Shown piece after piece: positions 39,191 to 45,272 of a stretch of DNA of 64,000 nucleotides; the stretch's first letter is position 1; each line of letters begins with the position of its first letter. The notes under the pieces are model-generated. The model had not been told where the DNA came from. It saw nothing but the letters and a program-made list of their open reading frames with translations, and made no database searches. This stretch comes from Escherichia coli (lineage in GTDB: Bacteria > Pseudomonadota > Gammaproteobacteria > Enterobacterales > Enterobacteriaceae). The translations under genes and the position numbers were made by a program. Where the stretch lies: NCBI RefSeq assembly GCF_003334255.1, contig NZ_QOWU01000024.1. One strand, given 5' to 3'.

Positions 39191-39568
39191 AATAAATAGT
39201 ATCCTGAAGGTGCATGTTGTTATCGATTTGCAACGAATGTTGTTCAATGTTGCAAACTGATAACCTTTTATTTTCACTTGGGAGAAAGGGGGTGATCGAG
39301 GTATATCTTTTTCTCCTTTCGCTATACATCCTAAGGAGTATTTCGGCGTGAAATTTTGATTTATTTCACATAGAGTTAGTGGTTTTTTATTTATTTAATG
39401 ATTTTAAGTTTTTTAATTAATGTAATTACGAAATGACTCGCAGGTTTAAGTGATTTAATTGATTTAATGAATAAAATTTGCCACGATCATAATTAATATC
39501 TATGTATTTTGATTCAACATTTTAATTACATCCGTCAAAGAGGCTCGGGACAACCCGCAAGGAAAACA
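39191..39568. promoter_or_regulatory. AT-rich divergent control region between the citC operon and dpiBA
   Basis: 378-bp strongly AT-rich intergenic region between divergent operons; specific sites not resolved from sequence. Confidence 0.4.
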
Positions 39569-41227
39569 ATGTTGCAGCTTAACGAGAATAAACAGTTTGC
39601 ATTTTTCCAAAGACTGGCATTTCCGCTGCGTATCTTTTTGCTGATTCTGGTGTTCTCAATATTTGTCATTGCAGCCCTGGCGCAATATTTTACGGCCAGT
39701 TTTGAGGACTATTTAACGCTTCATGTACGCGACATGGCAATGAATCAGGCGAAAATTATTGCCTCCAATGACAGTGTCATCTCTGCGGTGAAAACGCGTG
39801 ACTACAAACGGCTGGCGACCATCGCTAACAAATTACAAAGAGATACCGATTTTGATTATGTGGTGATTGGGGACCGGCACTCGATCCGCCTTTACCATCC
39901 TAATCCGGAGAAAATTGGTTATCCTATGCAGTTCACCAAACAGGGCGCGCTGGAGAAAGGGGAGAGCTACTTCATTACCGGGAAAGGGTCAATGGGGATG
40001 GCGATGCGCGCCAAAACGCCAATCTTTGATGACGATGGAAAAGTCATCGGCGTGGTGTCGATTGGCTACCTGGTGAGTAAAATCGATAGCTGGCGGGCTG
40101 AGTTTTTATTACCGATGGCAGGTGTGTTTGTCGTGCTGTTAGGGATTCTGATGTTGCTGTCGTGGTTCCTGGCCGCGCATATCCGTCGGCAGATGATGGG
40201 CATGGAGCCAAAGCAAATCGCACGCGTGGTCCGTCAGCAAGAGGCGCTGTTTAGTTCGGTTTATGAAGGGCTGATTGCGGTGGATCCGCATGGTTACATT
40301 ACCGCCATCAATCGTAACGCAAGAAAGATGCTGGGGCTGAGTTCCCCCGGACGGCAATGGTTGGGTAAACCCATTGTTGAAGTGGTCAGGCCCGCCGATT
40401 TCTTTACCGAACAGATTGATGAAAAACGTCAGGATGTGGTGGCGAACTTTAACGGTCTGAGCGTTATTGCCAACCGGGAAGCTATTCGTTCAGGTGATGA
40501 TTTGCTGGGGGCCATTATCAGCTTTCGTAGTAAAGACGAAATTTCCACCCTCAATGCGCAACTGACGCAAATAAAACAATACGTTGAGAGCCTTCGTACA
40601 TTGCGACACGAGCATCTCAATTGGATGTCGACGCTCAATGGTCTGTTGCAGATGAAAGAGTATGATCGCGTGCTGGCGATGGTGCAGGGGGAGTCTCAGG
40701 CCCAGCAACAGCTTATTGACAGCCTGCGCGAGGCGTTTGCCGATCGCCAGGTGGCGGGGCTGCTTTTTGGTAAAGTGCAGCGCGCCCGGGAACTGGGGCT
40801 AAAAATGATCATTGTCCCCGGTAGCCAGCTTTCGCAACTGCCGCCAGGACTGGATAGCACCGAGTTTGCAGCCATTGTGGGCAATTTACTTGATAACGCC
40901 TTCGAAGCCAGCCTGCGTAGCGATGAAGGAAACAAGATCGTTGAATTATTCCTCAGCGATGAAGGCGATGATGTGGTGATTGAAGTCGCCGATCAGGGCT
41001 GCGGCGTTCCAGAGTCTCTACGAGACAAAATATTTGAGCAGGGGGTCAGTACGCGTGCTGACGAGCCCGGTGAACATGGCATTGGGTTGTACTTGATTGC
41101 CAGCTACGTAACGCGCTGCGGTGGTGTTATCACTCTCGAAGATAATGATCCCTGCGGTACCTTATTTTCAATCTATATTCCGAAAGTGAAACCTAATGAC
41201 AGCTCCATTAACCCTATTGATCGTTGA
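39569..41227 (+). CDS. dpiB: Citrate-sensing histidine kinase
   Basis: Start trimmed to MLQLNENKQFAFF, 552 aa; two transmembrane segments flanking a periplasmic domain, then a kinase core. Confidence 0.9.
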   Translation: MLQLNENKQFAFFQRLAFPLRIFLLILVFSIFVIAALAQYFTASFEDYLTLHVRDMAMNQAKIIASNDSVISAVKTRDYKRLATIANKLQRDTDFDYVVIGDRHSIRLYHPNPEKIGYPMQFTKQGALEKGESYFITGKGSMGMAMRAKTPIFDDDGKVIGVVSIGYLVSKIDSWRAEFLLPMAGVFVVLLGILMLLSWFLAAHIRRQMMGMEPKQIARVVRQQEALFSSVYEGLIAVDPHGYITAINRNARKMLGLSSPGRQWLGKPIVEVVRPADFFTEQIDEKRQDVVANFNGLSVIANREAIRSGDDLLGAIISFRSKDEISTLNAQLTQIKQYVESLRTLRHEHLNWMSTLNGLLQMKEYDRVLAMVQGESQAQQQLIDSLREAFADRQVAGLLFGKVQRARELGLKMIIVPGSQLSQLPPGLDSTEFAAIVGNLLDNAFEASLRSDEGNKIVELFLSDEGDDVVIEVADQGCGVPESLRDKIFEQGVSTRADEPGEHGIGLYLIASYVTRCGGVITLEDNDPCGTLFSIYIPKVKPNDSSINPIDR

Positions 41228-41876
41228 GGACGAAACGCCGCTGGCAGAGATGCATGCGGAATATATTCGTCACATTCCCGGATTCAGTCAGATATTACTG
41301 GCGGGAAATCTGGCGCAGGCCCGAATGATGATCGAGCGTTTTAAGCCGGGGCTAATCTTGCTCGATAACTATCTTCCTGACGGTAGAGGGATTAATTTAC
41401 TGCATGAACTGGTGCAGGCGCATTATCCCGGCGACGTGGTGTTTACCACTGCAGCCAGCGATATGGAAACGGTGTCTGAAGCCGTACGTTGTGGTGTATT
41501 TGATTATCTCATTAAGCCCATTGCCTATGAACGGCTGGGGCAAACGCTAACCCGTTTCCGCCAGCGTAAACATATGCTGGAAAGTATTGATAGCGCCAGC
41601 CAGAAGCAAATTGATGAGATGTTTAATGCTTATGCTCGCGGTGAACCTAAGGACGAGCTACCGACCGGCATTGACCCCTTGACGCTAAACGCGGTGCGAA
41701 AACTGTTTAAAGAGCCTGGTGTGCAACATACGGCAGAAACGGTGGCGCAGGCACTGACCATCAGCCGCACCACTGCCAGGCGTTATCTTGAATATTGCGC
41801 CAGCCGCCATCTGATTATTGCTGAAATTGTTCACGGCAAAGTTGGCAGACCACAACGCATATACCACAGTGGGTGA
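41196..41876 (+). CDS. dpiA: Response regulator of the DpiBA (CitAB) two-component system
   Basis: 226-aa ORF with receiver domain (LIVEDE, LLDNYLPDG); 32-nt overlap with dpiB. Confidence 0.9.
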   Translation: MTAPLTLLIVEDETPLAEMHAEYIRHIPGFSQILLAGNLAQARMMIERFKPGLILLDNYLPDGRGINLLHELVQAHYPGDVVFTTAASDMETVSEAVRCGVFDYLIKPIAYERLGQTLTRFRQRKHMLESIDSASQKQIDEMFNAYARGEPKDELPTGIDPLTLNAVRKLFKEPGVQHTAETVAQALTISRTTARRYLEYCASRHLIIAEIVHGKVGRPQRIYHSG

Positions 41877-41916
41877 CATGATAAAGCCGGAGGAAACTTG
41901 CCTCCGGCATTACTAT

Positions 41917-43302
41917 TTACTTGCCTGTGACCGCTGCTGCCGTTCCTGGCACCATCAGCTCTGTAGCAACGATAACAATCACCAAACCAACAAGCACCGG
42001 TACCGAGGTGCGTTTTACGACTTCAAACGGCGAGATCTTCGCCATCCCGGCAACCGCAACGACTACGCCAGAAACGGGCGAAAGGGTACGGCCAAGGTTT
42101 GACGCCTGCAGCATCGGGATAGTCAAATACGCCGGGTTAATGCCGGAAGAGTGCGCCAGTTTCGGGATCATCTCAACAAACGCATAAAACGGCGCATTGC
42201 CTGAACCGGTCGTGACTGCCGCCAGCATTGTCAGAATCACCAATACCAGCATCAGGATGATACTCGCCGAACCAAACGAGGTAGCGATAGAAATCAGACT
42301 TTGAATAAAGCCGATGGTGCTAAGCCCCTGAGCGAATACCCCAGCGGCAACCAGCAGCATCACCACGTTAGCAAACGCATCTGCCATCCCGCGATAAGCC
42401 ACTTCCAGACCAGAGAAAACTTTCTGGGTATTAAAGCTGCGGAGGAACTCCAGAATGGAGGCAATCAGCATACAAATCACCAGAATAGTGATGATGTGTA
42501 ATTGCGGACCCCATTTACCGTCAAAAATCAGTACACCGATGATCGGCGTGAACGGCAAAATGGCATAAAACGCAGGAGCAGTGGTGGTGATTTCACTGAC
42601 ATCTAACATTTCATGAGAGATGTGCTCTTTTTTATCCAGATAACGTTGCCAGAAGAAGTGGGCGATCGCCATGCCGATAATTGCAGCAATTGAGATAGGC
42701 AGCGTCGTTTTGAAGGCGAAGTCAATCAGCGACATTTCGGAAGCTTGCGCCGCCAGCACCACATCCCCTGAAGTCGGTGCGAGAATAATCGCCGCCGGGG
42801 AGGCACAAATGGCAGCAGCTGCGCCACGACTGATACCAACGTTTACCATCACCGGAAATAGGGTTGCCATCAGCAAAACACCCAGACCGGTTGCGGAAGA
42901 GACGGCCAGAGACATCAGACAGGCGACAAAATAGGCGGCAATCATCAGCAGGTAAGGGGAGTTAATATACTGCAATGGTTTTGACGCCAGCTTGACCACC
43001 ATATCATTCGCGCCGATATGGGTCATGTAAGCGGCAAATCCACACAGCATCATAATCATCATGCCGAGGTCGCCGCCGCGGCTCATTAGTAATATTTTAA
43101 CGTATTCAACGATATCCGTGGCGCTGTAGCCTGTTGAAGCCTGGCTGGACGGTAACACTTTGTGCCCCATAATGGCACTGATAATCAGCAATAACAGGCC
43201 ACCGATAAATAACACACCAGTGGCGGAATACCCTTTAATGATGTAGCGAGCTACACCCACAATAACCACAACCCCAATAAGGAGCTCAATGAATGTCAGC
43301 AT
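41917..43302 (-). CDS. dcuC: Anaerobic C4-dicarboxylate transporter
   Basis: 461-aa polytopic membrane ORF recognised as DcuC; intact, with no insertion. Confidence 0.9.
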   Translation of the reverse strand: MLTFIELLIGVVVIVGVARYIIKGYSATGVLFIGGLLLLIISAIMGHKVLPSSQASTGYSATDIVEYVKILLMSRGGDLGMMIMMLCGFAAYMTHIGANDMVVKLASKPLQYINSPYLLMIAAYFVACLMSLAVSSATGLGVLLMATLFPVMVNVGISRGAAAAICASPAAIILAPTSGDVVLAAQASEMSLIDFAFKTTLPISIAAIIGMAIAHFFWQRYLDKKEHISHEMLDVSEITTTAPAFYAILPFTPIIGVLIFDGKWGPQLHIITILVICMLIASILEFLRSFNTQKVFSGLEVAYRGMADAFANVVMLLVAAGVFAQGLSTIGFIQSLISIATSFGSASIILMLVLVILTMLAAVTTGSGNAPFYAFVEMIPKLAHSSGINPAYLTIPMLQASNLGRTLSPVSGVVVAVAGMAKISPFEVVKRTSVPVLVGLVIVIVATELMVPGTAAAVTGK

Positions 43303-43391
43303 AATTTTTCCTGTCTCCAGGCCCCAAAGTAAATAATAAAAAATTCCTAAAGCTTAAGGAAAAAATATGCCCAATAAATTGGCGATGAATG

Positions 43392-43405
43392 CTGATTAAA
43401 ATCAA
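43392..43405 (-). promoter_or_regulatory. Candidate FNR-type site upstream of dcuC
   Basis: Minus-strand TTGATtttaATCAg matches 9 of 10 positions of the FNR consensus TTGAT-N4-ATCAA, about 90 bp upstream of the dcuC start codon. Confidence 0.35.
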
Positions 43406-43890
43406 GAAAAACTGCCATTAAGACATTGAAGTTGCTGTTTTTATACATAGATAACAAAACGCATATTTAGCGGTTGGCAATTATCACATAATAATGTGTG
43501 CAAATTGATGGTGGATTGATGCAAATTTGTTAATTGCAATGGTGTTAGCTGCGGCTGTGCGCTCAAAAAATAATCTAATATGAGCATAGGTTGACGATAT
43601 ATATTATATACTTCGTTAAGATGATTGTTGTATCTCGTTAAAAAATAAAATAATTTTTCCTTGATTGCATTTTGTCATCAAAAAAGACTTGGTTTTTCTT
43701 TTTTGACTATTCCCATCGCAGAAAACGACGCATCATCTTTAATCGATGCGCGGAAATATTTAACTTGAACAAGCGGAAATAAATAGAGCAGCTATTCAGA
43801 TTATTCTTTATGTTGGGTCTATTAAGGTTATGTTAATTGTAGCTTTGCTATGCTAGTAGTAGATTTTTGATAAATGTTTTATGGTCACAA

Positions 43891-44451
43891 ATGAACGTGA
43901 GTAAATATGTCGCTATCTTTTCCTTTGTTTTTATTCAGTTAATCAGCGTTGGTAAAGTTTTTGCTAACGCAGATGAGTGGATGACAACGTTTAGAGAAAA
44001 TATTGCACAAACCTGGCAACAGCCTGAACATTATGATTTATATATTCCTGCCATCACCTGGCATGCACGTTTCGCTTACGACAAAGAAAAAACCGATCGC
44101 TATAACGAGCGACCGTGGGGTGGCGGTTTTGGCCTGTCGCGTTGGGATGAAAAAGGAAACTGGCATGGCCTGTATGCCATGGCATTTAAGGACTCGTGGA
44201 ACAAATGGGAACCGATTGCCGGATACGGATGGGAAAGTACCTGGCGACCGCTGGCGGATGAAAATTTTCATTTAGGTCTGGGATTCACCGCTGGCGTAAC
44301 GGCACGCGATAACTGGAATTACATCCCTCTCCCGGTTCTACTGCCATTGGCCTCCGTGGGTTATGGCCCAGTGACTTTTCAGATGACCTACATTCCGGGT
44401 ACCTACAACAATGGCAATGTGTACTTTGCCTGGATGCGCTTTCAGTTTTGA
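43891..44451 (+). CDS. pagP: Outer-membrane lipid A palmitoyltransferase
   Basis: Start trimmed to [17 protein letters not shown] (signal peptide), 186 aa; recognised as PagP (CrcA). Confidence 0.9.
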
Positions 44452-44625
44452 GACAAATGAAGTTTTAGTAACTTCTTTAAAATCAATAGCTAAAATAAGT
44501 AACATCAAAAATAACGCGACTTTTATCACTTTTTAGTAAAGTTACACTGGACAAAGCGTACCACAATTGGTGTACTGGTAACCGACACAGCATTTGTGTC
44601 TATTTTTCATGTAAAGGTAATTTTG

Positions 44626-44835
44626 ATGTCTAAGATTAAAGGTAACGTTAAGTGGTTTAATGAGTCCAAAGGATTCGGTTTCATTACTCCGGAAGACGGC
44701 AGCAAAGACGTGTTCGTACACTTCTCTGCAATCCAGACTAATGGTTTTAAAACTCTTGCTGAAGGTCAGCGCGTAGAGTTCGAAATCACTAACGGTGCCA
44801 AAGGCCCTTCTGCTGCAAACGTAATCGCTCTGTAA
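44626..44835 (+). CDS. cspE: Cold-shock-domain protein E
   Basis: Start trimmed to [20 protein letters not shown] (RNP1 motif), 69 aa. Confidence 0.95.
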
Positions 44836-44854
44836 GATACGTCAGCAAGAATTC

Positions 44855-44884
44855 AAAACCCGCTTAATCAGCGGGTTTTTTTTG
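44855..44884. terminator. Bidirectional rho-independent terminator between cspE and crcB
   Basis: aaaacccgc ttaatca gcgggttttttttgg: 6-bp GC stem flanked by an A-run and a T-run, between convergent genes. Confidence 0.75.
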
Positions 44885-44888
44885 GTCT

Positions 44889-45272
44889 TTAGTGTGCGGT
44901 TGAGGCCGAAAACAGCCAGAATGCCAGTGCGGTCATGGCAAAAGACCCCAGAAGGTTGACGAAAACGTTCAGTAATGCCCAGCCAAAGCGGCCCTCTTGT
45001 AACAAAAACACCACTTCTGCCGAAAATGTTGAGAAGGTTGTTAGACCGCCACAAAATCCGGTGGTGATTAATACTTTCCACACTGGATCAATGTTCGTCA
45101 TCCTGCTGAACCATGCGAATCCTATTCCTATGATGAATGCCCCAATCAGGTTTGCTGTCAGCGTCCCCAACGGAATCGCCTGATGCAGTGGGTTAAATCG
45201 CATACTTAACAGCCATCTCGCCACGCTTCCCGTACCACCGCCAATAAAAACTGCTAAAAGAAGTTGTAACAC
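44889..45272 (-). CDS. crcB: Fluoride ion channel (Fluc)
   Basis: 127-aa membrane ORF recognised as CrcB. Confidence 0.9.

Follow-up and report, generated by a model that had tools for sequence, protein, structure and literature searches.

What occupies the long stretch of AT-rich DNA between the divergent genes dcuC and pagP, and how much of it does anything specific? We addressed this question in the window, by which we mean the whole 64,000-nt stretch of DNA that was analysed. The window is collinear, without gaps, with E. coli K-12 MG1655 (NC_000913.3, approximately 612667-676590) at 99.98% identity, and the MG1655 annotation is therefore transferable to it. With that annotation in place, the locus is laid out as follows:

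41917-43302, minus strand: dcuC (transferred MG1655 annotation)
43891 onward, plus strand: pagP (transferred MG1655 annotation)
43303-43890, no strand assigned: the divergent dcuC-pagP intergenic region, 588 bp, 31.5% GC

The initial annotation had described this region as the longest non-coding stretch in the window and as strongly AT-rich with homopolymeric A/T tracts, and both descriptions are borne out. No other annotated intergenic gap in the 64,000 nt is as long as these 588 bp, the runners-up being citC-dpiB (378 bp), fepB-entC (374 bp) and dsbG-ahpC (371 bp). Its GC content of 31.5%, as compared with 51.7% for the whole window (the upstream region is about 69% AT), is matched or undercut by just 0.06% of the stretches of 588 bp in the window, the minimum itself being at 43323, so that the gap is displaced by no more than 20 bp from the stretch of lowest GC; there are twelve A/T runs of at least five bases. 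No native annotated feature was present inside the gap in the RefSeq records that we sampled from the 5382 E. coli genomes that carry it, and in one sampled record an IS1 element was inserted there.

We consider it very probable that the gap is a shared back-to-back control region, consisting of an FNR-activated dcuC promoter, a PhoP-activated, H-NS-silenced pagP promoter, and an AT-rich spacer between them. As a divergent regulatory region it is already known: the FNR site, the PhoP promoter and the control of pagP by H-NS, SlyA and RcsB have all been published, and FNR occupancy, sigma-70 occupancy, H-NS repression and the position of the PhoP box are established by that work. To locate these elements against the background of sequence change, we relied on two alignments of dcuC-pagP loci, one of 11 genomes and one of 45 genomes from Escherichia, Citrobacter, Salmonella, Enterobacter, Klebsiella and Raoultella. 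The order dcuC (leftward)-pagP (rightward)-cspE is kept in Escherichia, Citrobacter, Salmonella, many Enterobacter, Klebsiella and Raoultella. The gap itself ranges in size from approximately 281 bp in Klebsiella through 403 bp in Salmonella and approximately 460 bp in Citrobacter to 558-588 bp in Escherichia. The leader of cspE carries a cspA thermoregulator, the sole real Rfam match between 42800 and 44900.

The gap falls into three parts: a conserved dcuC side (43303-43551), a hypervariable core (approximately 43552-43745) and a pagP side (43746-43890). Beyond the FNR site, some 450 bp had been set aside in the initial annotation as DNA to which no function could be assigned. That is true of about 190 bp, which behaves as freely evolving spacer, but it overstates the case for the other 250 bp or so, which is conserved regulatory DNA.

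On the dcuC side, the features that matter most are these:

43392-43405, minus strand: FNR binding site, reading CTGATTAAAATCAA on the plus strand and TTGATtttaATCAg (that is, TTGATTTTAATCAG) on the dcuC strand, supported by conservation and published ChIP-seq
43364-43369, minus strand: predicted dcuC -10 hexamer, CATATT in E. coli and CACATT elsewhere, lying inside AATGTGCCGAATAAA at a spacing that fits FNR at -41.5
43303-43357, minus strand: predicted dcuC 5' UTR of about 55 nt, placed by subtracting 41.5 bp from the FNR centre at 43398.5, with the Shine-Dalgarno sequence GGAGACAGGA close to the ATG at 43302
43344-43361, no strand assigned: 18-bp near-palindrome TTCCTAAAGCTTAAGGAA, overlapping the predicted dcuC start

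The FNR site agrees with TTGAT-N4-ATCAA at 9 of 10 positions, the single mismatch being a G for the final A. Seven such one-mismatch sites occur in the window, where 2.4 would be expected by chance. This one (TGAT..AAATCA) does not vary among the 11 genomes and is conserved to at least 90% across the 45, which span several genera. Two blocks on the dcuC side reach that level of at least 90% conservation, namely the FNR site with its flanks (43389-43410) and AATGTGCCGAATAAA (43364-43380). The published FNR analysis agrees closely: the identical 14-mer, CTGATTAAAATCAA, is listed as an FNR position-weight-matrix site scoring 12.38 bits, at a position (655281 in old coordinates) that corresponds to window 43391/2, and FNR ChIP-seq peaks at 655298 and 655340, equivalent to window 43408 and 43450, fall 10-50 bp from it (PMC3688515). 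In the same study dcuC belongs to the directly FNR-activated class, with FNR-dependent expression that rises anaerobically (PMC3688515). The proposal that a near-consensus FNR site at 43392-43405 on the minus strand is suited to anaerobic activation of dcuC is thus upheld by the matrix hit, the ChIP-seq peak and the invariance across genera.

The predicted -10 hexamer (CATATT/CACATT) falls exactly where it would be expected if the FNR site were centred at -41.5, and from the same spacing we infer a dcuC transcription start near 43357. The published table entry for dcuC reads "TSS not in peak region" (PMC3688515), and the database start may therefore lie elsewhere. Under anaerobiosis, FNR binds its site and activates what is probably a class II-type promoter, with CATATT as the predicted -10 and transcription running leftward into dcuC from approximately 43357. 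Nearer the gene, the hexamer CCTGTC beside the dcuC start codon is conserved across genera.

The near-palindrome is a more local feature. It resembles an EvgA-type inverted repeat, with which TTCCTAAAGCTTAAGGAA agrees at 13 of the 16 specified positions, a score reached by 0.3% of shuffles; it is changed in B2 and AHM21 strains and missing outside E. coli. AA/TT dinucleotides on the dcuC side recur with a period of 11-11.5 bp, which is weak evidence for curvature.

At the other end of the gap, the pagP promoter is compact:

43794-43812, plus strand: block ATTCAGATTATTCTTTAT with a TTCnGATT core (43795-43803), upstream of the PhoP box and conserved across genera
43820-43836, plus strand: PhoP box TATTAAggttaTGTTAA, a direct repeat of TATTAA and TGTTAA separated by ggtta, 12 bp upstream of the -10 and at a position that matches the published E. 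coli site
43849-43854, plus strand: pagP -10 hexamer TATGCT, with TAnnnT invariant in the 11 genomes and a sigma-70 ChIP-seq peak
43860-43890, plus strand: predicted pagP 5' UTR of about 30 nt, placed 6-7 nt past the -10, the Salmonella start mapped with S1 nuclease being 6 nt past its own -10

A PhoP-dependent architecture had been offered in the initial annotation as one possibility for the DNA upstream of pagP; such a promoter was already documented, within the last 75 bp or so of the gap (PMC2908699, PMC3335776), and E. coli pagP is stated to be PhoPQ-dependent (PMC6106083). By consensus alone the box would be unremarkable. TATTAAggttaTGTTAA agrees with (T/G)GTTTA-5 nt-(T/G)GTTTA at 9 of 12 positions, and two more matches with three mismatches lie within 75 bp; matches of this type are common in AT-rich DNA, and the case for TATTAAggttaTGTTAA depends mainly on where it lies and on its conservation. 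On the pagP side, the positions that are invariant across genera are those of the TAnnnT -10 together with the upstream, phased TGTTAA-type half-sites 11 bp apart. The likeness of ATTCAGATTATTCTTTAT to an RcsAB box is at chance level.

The published sigma-70 ChIP-seq peak at 655742 corresponds to window 43852, directly on the pagP -10 (PMC3688515 supplement), and the placing of that hexamer suggests a pagP start near 43860. The centre of the PhoP box, at 43828, is then 32 bp from the predicted start, in line with the reported distance from PhoP site to start of 32 bp in E. coli crcA/pagP, as against 44 bp in Salmonella (PMC2908699). Salmonella pagP has been described as having one S1-mapped start, which depends on PhoP, a TATTAT -10 and two footprinted PhoP boxes, the second of them 126 bp upstream of the start (PMC3335776). 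The E. coli box aligns with the footprinted Salmonella box but is displaced by one half-site. In the model we favor, PhoP would bind at 43820-43836 and activate pagP from approximately 43860.

That the AT-rich DNA might be bound and silenced by a nucleoid protein had also been suggested, and this too was already on record: pagP is repressed 18-fold by H-NS, as judged by an 18-fold de-repression in an hns mutant (PMC4147861), and the spacer was flagged HNS in a genomic SELEX study of RpoD (PMC3946193). SlyA de-represses pagP, for which three putative SlyA sites have been reported (PMC4147861), and the gene is induced through RcsB/GadE in biofilms (PMC4147861, PMC6106083). H-NS ChIP-chip gave no signal over the FNR motif (PMC3688515), so that coverage by H-NS may be confined to the portion nearer pagP; FNR occupancy at the dcuC site was unchanged in an hns/stpA mutant (PMC3688515). 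Most probably, H-NS coats the AT-rich stretch that precedes the pagP promoter and lowers expression approximately 18-fold, and SlyA and RcsB/GadE relieve this repression.

Consensus searches of the gap add little to this picture. The best match to the H-NS nucleation motif (TCGATAAATT-like) is TTGATAAATG at 43867-43876, with 8 of 10 positions, a score that 80% of shuffles equal or exceed. When the gap was scanned for SlyA, the GAD box (RcsB-GadE), the RcsAB box, the ArcA direct repeat and the H-NS motif, nothing rose above shuffled AT-rich DNA, and for SlyA there was no close consensus match in the gap (at most 8 of 12). We therefore claim no direct SlyA, GAD, RcsAB, ArcA or H-NS sites.

Between the two promoters lies the part of the gap that distinguishes Escherichia:

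43552-43745, no strand assigned: Escherichia-specific, hypervariable AT-rich core, read as spacer from its diversity and its absence in other genera

In the 11-genome alignment the core is missing in Citrobacter, Salmonella, Enterobacter and Klebsiella. Among E. coli strains the gap is 92-96% identical, as compared with 98-99.6% for the flanking coding sequences, and the differences cluster in the core. In a set of 11 haplotypes, nucleotide diversity (pi) is 0.126 in the core (with a peak of 0.19 at 43633-43662), whereas the parts of the gap on either side of it have values of 0.025-0.033 and 72 four-fold degenerate sites nearby have a value of 0.048; pi is inflated by the choice of haplotypes to span identity to the K-12 core, although the pairwise contrast between core and synonymous sites is unaffected. 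The clearest such pair is K-12 and O157, which differ at 17.8% of positions in the core and at 0 of the 72 nearby four-fold sites. Divergent alleles are common: of 5377 complete genomes, 1840 have a core that shares just 80-90% identity with that of K-12. The 11 haplotypes include several multi-allelic sites and mosaic arrangements. Natural isolates have also suffered gross changes: in one, an IS1 with a 9-bp target duplication sits at 43406-43414, another carries an IS1-bounded deletion of 39524-43740, and a third has an IS3 plus an IS1 inserted in the gap. No ORF, hairpin or promoter in the core is preserved across the E. coli lineages.

Given this variability, the absence of the core outside Escherichia and the tolerated insertions and deletion, we conclude that the core is free of sequence-specific constraint. 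Its divergence is nonetheless well above the local neutral benchmark, and simple relaxed constraint does not account for the excess. Several origins for the core were considered and rejected. A mobile source is not indicated, since there was no phage match and the "plasmid" matches proved to be megabase-sized or otherwise chromosomal E. coli records. Introgression fares no better: all E. coli alleles are equally far (approximately 63-65% identity) from E. whittamii and Escherichia sp. E1V33, and they are equidistant from E. albertii too. No donor was identified in any of these comparisons with phage, plasmids and related Escherichia. Internal repeats in the gap are limited to short pairs at chance level. 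The multi-allelic sites suggest an accumulation of numerous local changes, as opposed to one replacement event.

The same variability bears on the idea that the gap conceals an RNA gene. The initial annotation had allowed for an unannotated small RNA, and there is a published candidate, the 295-nt Ssr31 of Shigella flexneri 301, to which an independent small RNA upstream of pagP and on its strand could be homologous. Ssr31, one of 57 computationally predicted S. flexneri small RNAs, was called from the presence of a promoter and a terminator; it is placed between pagP and dcuC, in the orientation of pagP, and has as its sole support an RT-PCR result given as "Yes" (PMC4782007). RT-PCR that is not strand-specific is weak evidence when the gene immediately downstream is expressed. 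RpoD holoenzyme does bind the spacer in vitro (PMC3946193), and the core contains hexamers that can be read as promoter-like, but these are lost in O157 and B2 strains, and the candidate stretch is the most variable DNA of the locus and missing outside Escherichia.

Searches for RNA features point the same way. An Rfam scan of 42800-44900 at permissive thresholds (E-values up to 10, loose filters) left the gap empty of credible families, with chance-level matches only. A consensus scan for promoters and terminators returned one promoter-like site in the gap (minus strand, 43678-43650), where 4.3 would be expected by chance, and one terminator-like hairpin, likewise on the minus strand; there is no canonical intrinsic terminator on the plus strand.

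43728-43751, minus strand: terminator-like hairpin ACGCATC...GATGCGC with a weak T tail, judged non-functional

This hairpin (43751-43728) lies upstream of the promoter-like site, which is the wrong order for a small-RNA gene, and neither element is kept in O157 or B2. Fold z-scores for 100-nt windows are unremarkable: those of the plus strand stay between -1.1 and +1.2, and the best value overall, -2.5 on the minus strand, becomes -1.75 in a 126-nt fold. None is significant. We considered whether the hairpin might be a conserved structure, because the O157 allele first seemed compatible with G-U pairing on the plus strand, but the idea was rejected once all 11 haplotypes were compared. Across them the left arm (5' on the plus strand) varies (ATGTGTC, ACGAATC, ATACATC), with A-C and A-G mismatches among the results, and the right arm is invariant; there are therefore no compensatory changes, and the structure is not conserved. 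The sole hairpin thus loses pairing in several lineages, and the search for covariation that had been suggested as a check on conserved RNA structure comes out negative. With Rfam, terminator, fold and covariation all against it, and in hypervariable sequence, a small RNA finds no support here, and we regard an independent Ssr31-like gene as very improbable.

A hidden small protein fares worse still. The K-12-like sequence does contain candidate ORFs, of 35 and 36 aa at 43661-43782 on the plus strand and of 48 aa at 43441-43587 on the minus strand, but among the 11 E. coli haplotypes they lose their start codons or acquire in-frame stops or frameshifts, no such ORF is annotated in the sampled RefSeq genomes, and the region is missing in other genera. 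We judge this reading to be close to refuted, with next to no chance of being correct.

A sigma-54 promoter in the gap was also considered and rejected. The element TGGCAC-N5-TTGCA has no match with three or fewer mismatches within 43303-43890, and a published RpoN/NtrC SELEX peak (PMC8743547) is accounted for by a site inside pagP, TTGGTAAAGTTTTTGCT, that is bound in sigma-54 ChIP-seq (PMC4591121):

43949-43965, inside pagP: intragenic sigma-54 site TTGGTAAAGTTTTTGCT, from ChIP-seq (PMC4591121)

Another alternative concerns regulation rather than gene content. The middle of the gap could hold distal operators (for ArcA, for a second, repressing PhoP box, for SlyA or for RcsB-GadE), in which case the hypervariability would represent lineage-specific retuning under diversifying selection or regulatory switching. 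One conserved block, between the FNR site and the core, is relevant here:

43517-43536, no strand assigned: distal block TGATGCAAATTTGTTAATTG with a TTGTTAAT core, a candidate OmpR-family half-site

The TTGTTAAT core (43527-43534) is approximately 90% conserved in the 45 genomes, and the 9-mer TGTTAATTG of this block recurs at the PhoP box. From its sequence, TGATGCAAATTTGTTAATTG may be a half-site of an OmpR-family regulator of the ArcA or PhoP type; as a match to the ArcA consensus it is no better than chance. This block counts in favor of distal control, as do the second footprinted PhoP box of Salmonella pagP at 126 bp upstream of the start, the three reported SlyA sites, and the behavior of an arcA mutant, in which both dcuC and pagP are down and for which an ArcA site in the gap was predicted in silico (PMC3798270). 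The core itself contributes divergence far above that of nearby synonymous sites, together with its multi-allelic sites and mosaic haplotypes. Against this, the conserved candidate site at 43527-43534 falls outside the hypervariable core, no motif in the core rises above chance, the predicted ArcA site had no ChIP binding (PMC3798270), the selection of strains to span core diversity inflates pi, and natural isolates tolerate insertions and deletions in this DNA. On balance we think mid-gap operators unlikely, if the most credible of the alternatives to a plain spacer.

A bolder version of this idea is that the core is itself a target of diversifying selection or of local hypermutation, with the K-12, O157 and B2 alleles setting different levels, or different triggers, of H-NS silencing at pagP, and perhaps at dcuC, or else that it encodes a fast-evolving, lineage-specific transcript such as Ssr31; we would give this no more than a slim chance. 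It draws its interest from the rate of change, since between some lineages the core has diverged more than 10 times faster than the adjacent synonymous sites, and from the function of PagP in lipid A palmitoylation: if core variation did alter pagP silencing, it would link a regulatory polymorphism to outer-membrane remodelling and to differences in immune evasion among E. coli lineages.

We therefore return to the two-promoter control region as the preferred account of the gap. The core at 43552-43745 would, at most, provide AT-rich length for an H-NS filament and distance between the two promoters. That the gap is so long needs no more explanation than a pair of promoters and AT-rich silencing DNA. 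To what was published, our analysis adds exact window coordinates for the known elements and separates the constrained from the unconstrained parts: the promoter elements are conserved across genera, the core is hypervariable, and there is no RNA or ORF signal. It also disposes of the gap as a home for a small RNA, a small protein or a sigma-54 promoter. What is left as the sole modest curiosity is the hypervariable core peculiar to Escherichia.

Each component of this locus has counterparts among known systems. Oren et al. 2014 reportedly described horizontal regulatory switching, and Thorpe et al. 2018 are said to have catalogued "switched IGRs" with Piggy. Like switched or hypervariable E. 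coli intergenic regions, the dcuC-pagP gap contains a short segment that is 15-18% divergent between strains in which the flanking genes are 99.6% identical, and it has mosaic haplotypes; it differs from them in that its core has multi-allelic sites and no identified donor.

The dcuC promoter resembles the class II FNR promoters of dmsA, focA and yfiD in its TTGAT-N4-ATCAA-type site, in FNR occupancy in vivo and in the spacing to the -10, and differs from them in one non-consensus base (G for the final A) and in having a start that we place by spacing. On the other side, pagP has in common with the promoters silenced by H-NS and counter-silenced by SlyA (hlyE, the K5 capsule genes and Salmonella pagC) a long stretch of AT-rich upstream DNA, 18-fold de-repression in an hns mutant and SlyA-dependent induction. 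Unlike those genes, pagP belongs to the vertically inherited core genome and not to a horizontally acquired island, and the extent of its H-NS coverage is presumed.

The closest relative is the orthologous Salmonella pagP promoter, assigned to architecture IV (Zwir et al. 2012, PMC3335776), which shares the dcuC-pagP-cspE synteny, the TGTTAA-type half-sites 11 bp apart and the TAnnnT -10. The best half-site pair in E. coli is one half-site nearer to the -10 (12 vs. 23 bp, or 32 vs. 44 bp to the start), a difference in spacing that had already been described (PMC2908699). E. coli also carries approximately 190 bp of additional, Escherichia-specific DNA at the place where the second PhoP box of Salmonella sits.

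The middle of the AT-rich region between dcuC and pagP (43303-43890), at 43552-43745, is Escherichia-specific and hypervariable among E. coli. Across 11 E. coli haplotypes, nucleotide diversity is 0.126 in this core versus 0.048 at nearby four-fold sites, although the first value is inflated by the choice of haplotypes to span core diversity. K-12 and O157 differ by 17.8% in the core and are identical at all 72 four-fold sites. The core haplotypes are mosaics with multi-allelic sites, and 34% of complete genomes carry a core allele that is just 80-90% identical to that of K-12. No donor for this segment was found among the phages, plasmids and other Escherichia species compared.

Outside the core lie three further sequence features, two within the intergenic region and one in pagP itself:

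43344-43361: 18-bp near-palindrome TTCCTAAAGCTTAAGGAA, overlapping the predicted dcuC start
43517-43536: distal block TGATGCAAATTTGTTAATTG with core TTGTTAAT, the latter showing about 90% conservation across 45 genomes from several genera
43949-43965, sense strand: sigma-54 site TTGGTAAAGTTTTTGCT inside pagP, about 60 bp from its start

The near-palindrome resembles an EvgA-type inverted repeat: 13 of 16 positions match, a score equaled by only 0.3% of shuffles. It is changed in B2 and AHM21 strains and missing outside E. coli. Some 130 bp separate the conserved block from the FNR site (43392-43405, minus strand), and a 9-mer within the block, TGTTAATTG, is found again at 43831-43839, in the PhoP box of pagP. 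PMC3798270 mentions an in-silico ArcA site, to which this block may correspond; alternatively, the block may be a distal PhoP half-site. The intragenic sigma-54 site is IS06, which is occupied in published sigma-54 ChIP-seq data (PMC4591121), and it probably explains the RpoN/NtrC SELEX peak that has been attributed to the dcuC/pagP spacer.

The intergenic region is also a recurrent target of insertion sequences in natural isolates, as seen in three records (NZ_CP084055.1, NZ_LR890606.1 and NZ_CP061754.1). One strain carries an IS1 flanked by a 9-bp duplication of 43406-43414, directly adjoining the FNR site; in a second, IS1 has replaced 39524-43740, with loss of dpiB, dpiA, dcuC and most of the intergenic region; and a third carries both an IS3 and an IS1 upstream of pagP. 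Such insertions could rewire the expression of dcuC or pagP.

At the end of the window (63920-64000), divergence from MG1655 begins at about 63923 and the sequence then runs into the end of an IS1; the last 78-81 bases are a 98.7-98.8% match to the IS1 copies of NZ_LR890606.1 and NZ_CP084055.1. It follows that the source strain carries an IS1, missing from MG1655, within or close to ybeQ. Elsewhere, the cspE leader and gene (44441-44883) match the full-length Rfam model of the cspA thermoregulator (RF01766; 124 bits, E = 7.5e-33).

Upstream of pagP, comparison of E. coli with an S. enterica subsp. arizonae locus revealed three phased half-sites (43809-43836). E. coli has its best PhoP pair at the proximal position, 12 bp from the -10 element, whereas in Salmonella the distal pair, 23 bp from the -10 element, is the best. 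This one-turn shift is consistent with the published distances of 32 bp for E. coli and 44 bp for Salmonella.
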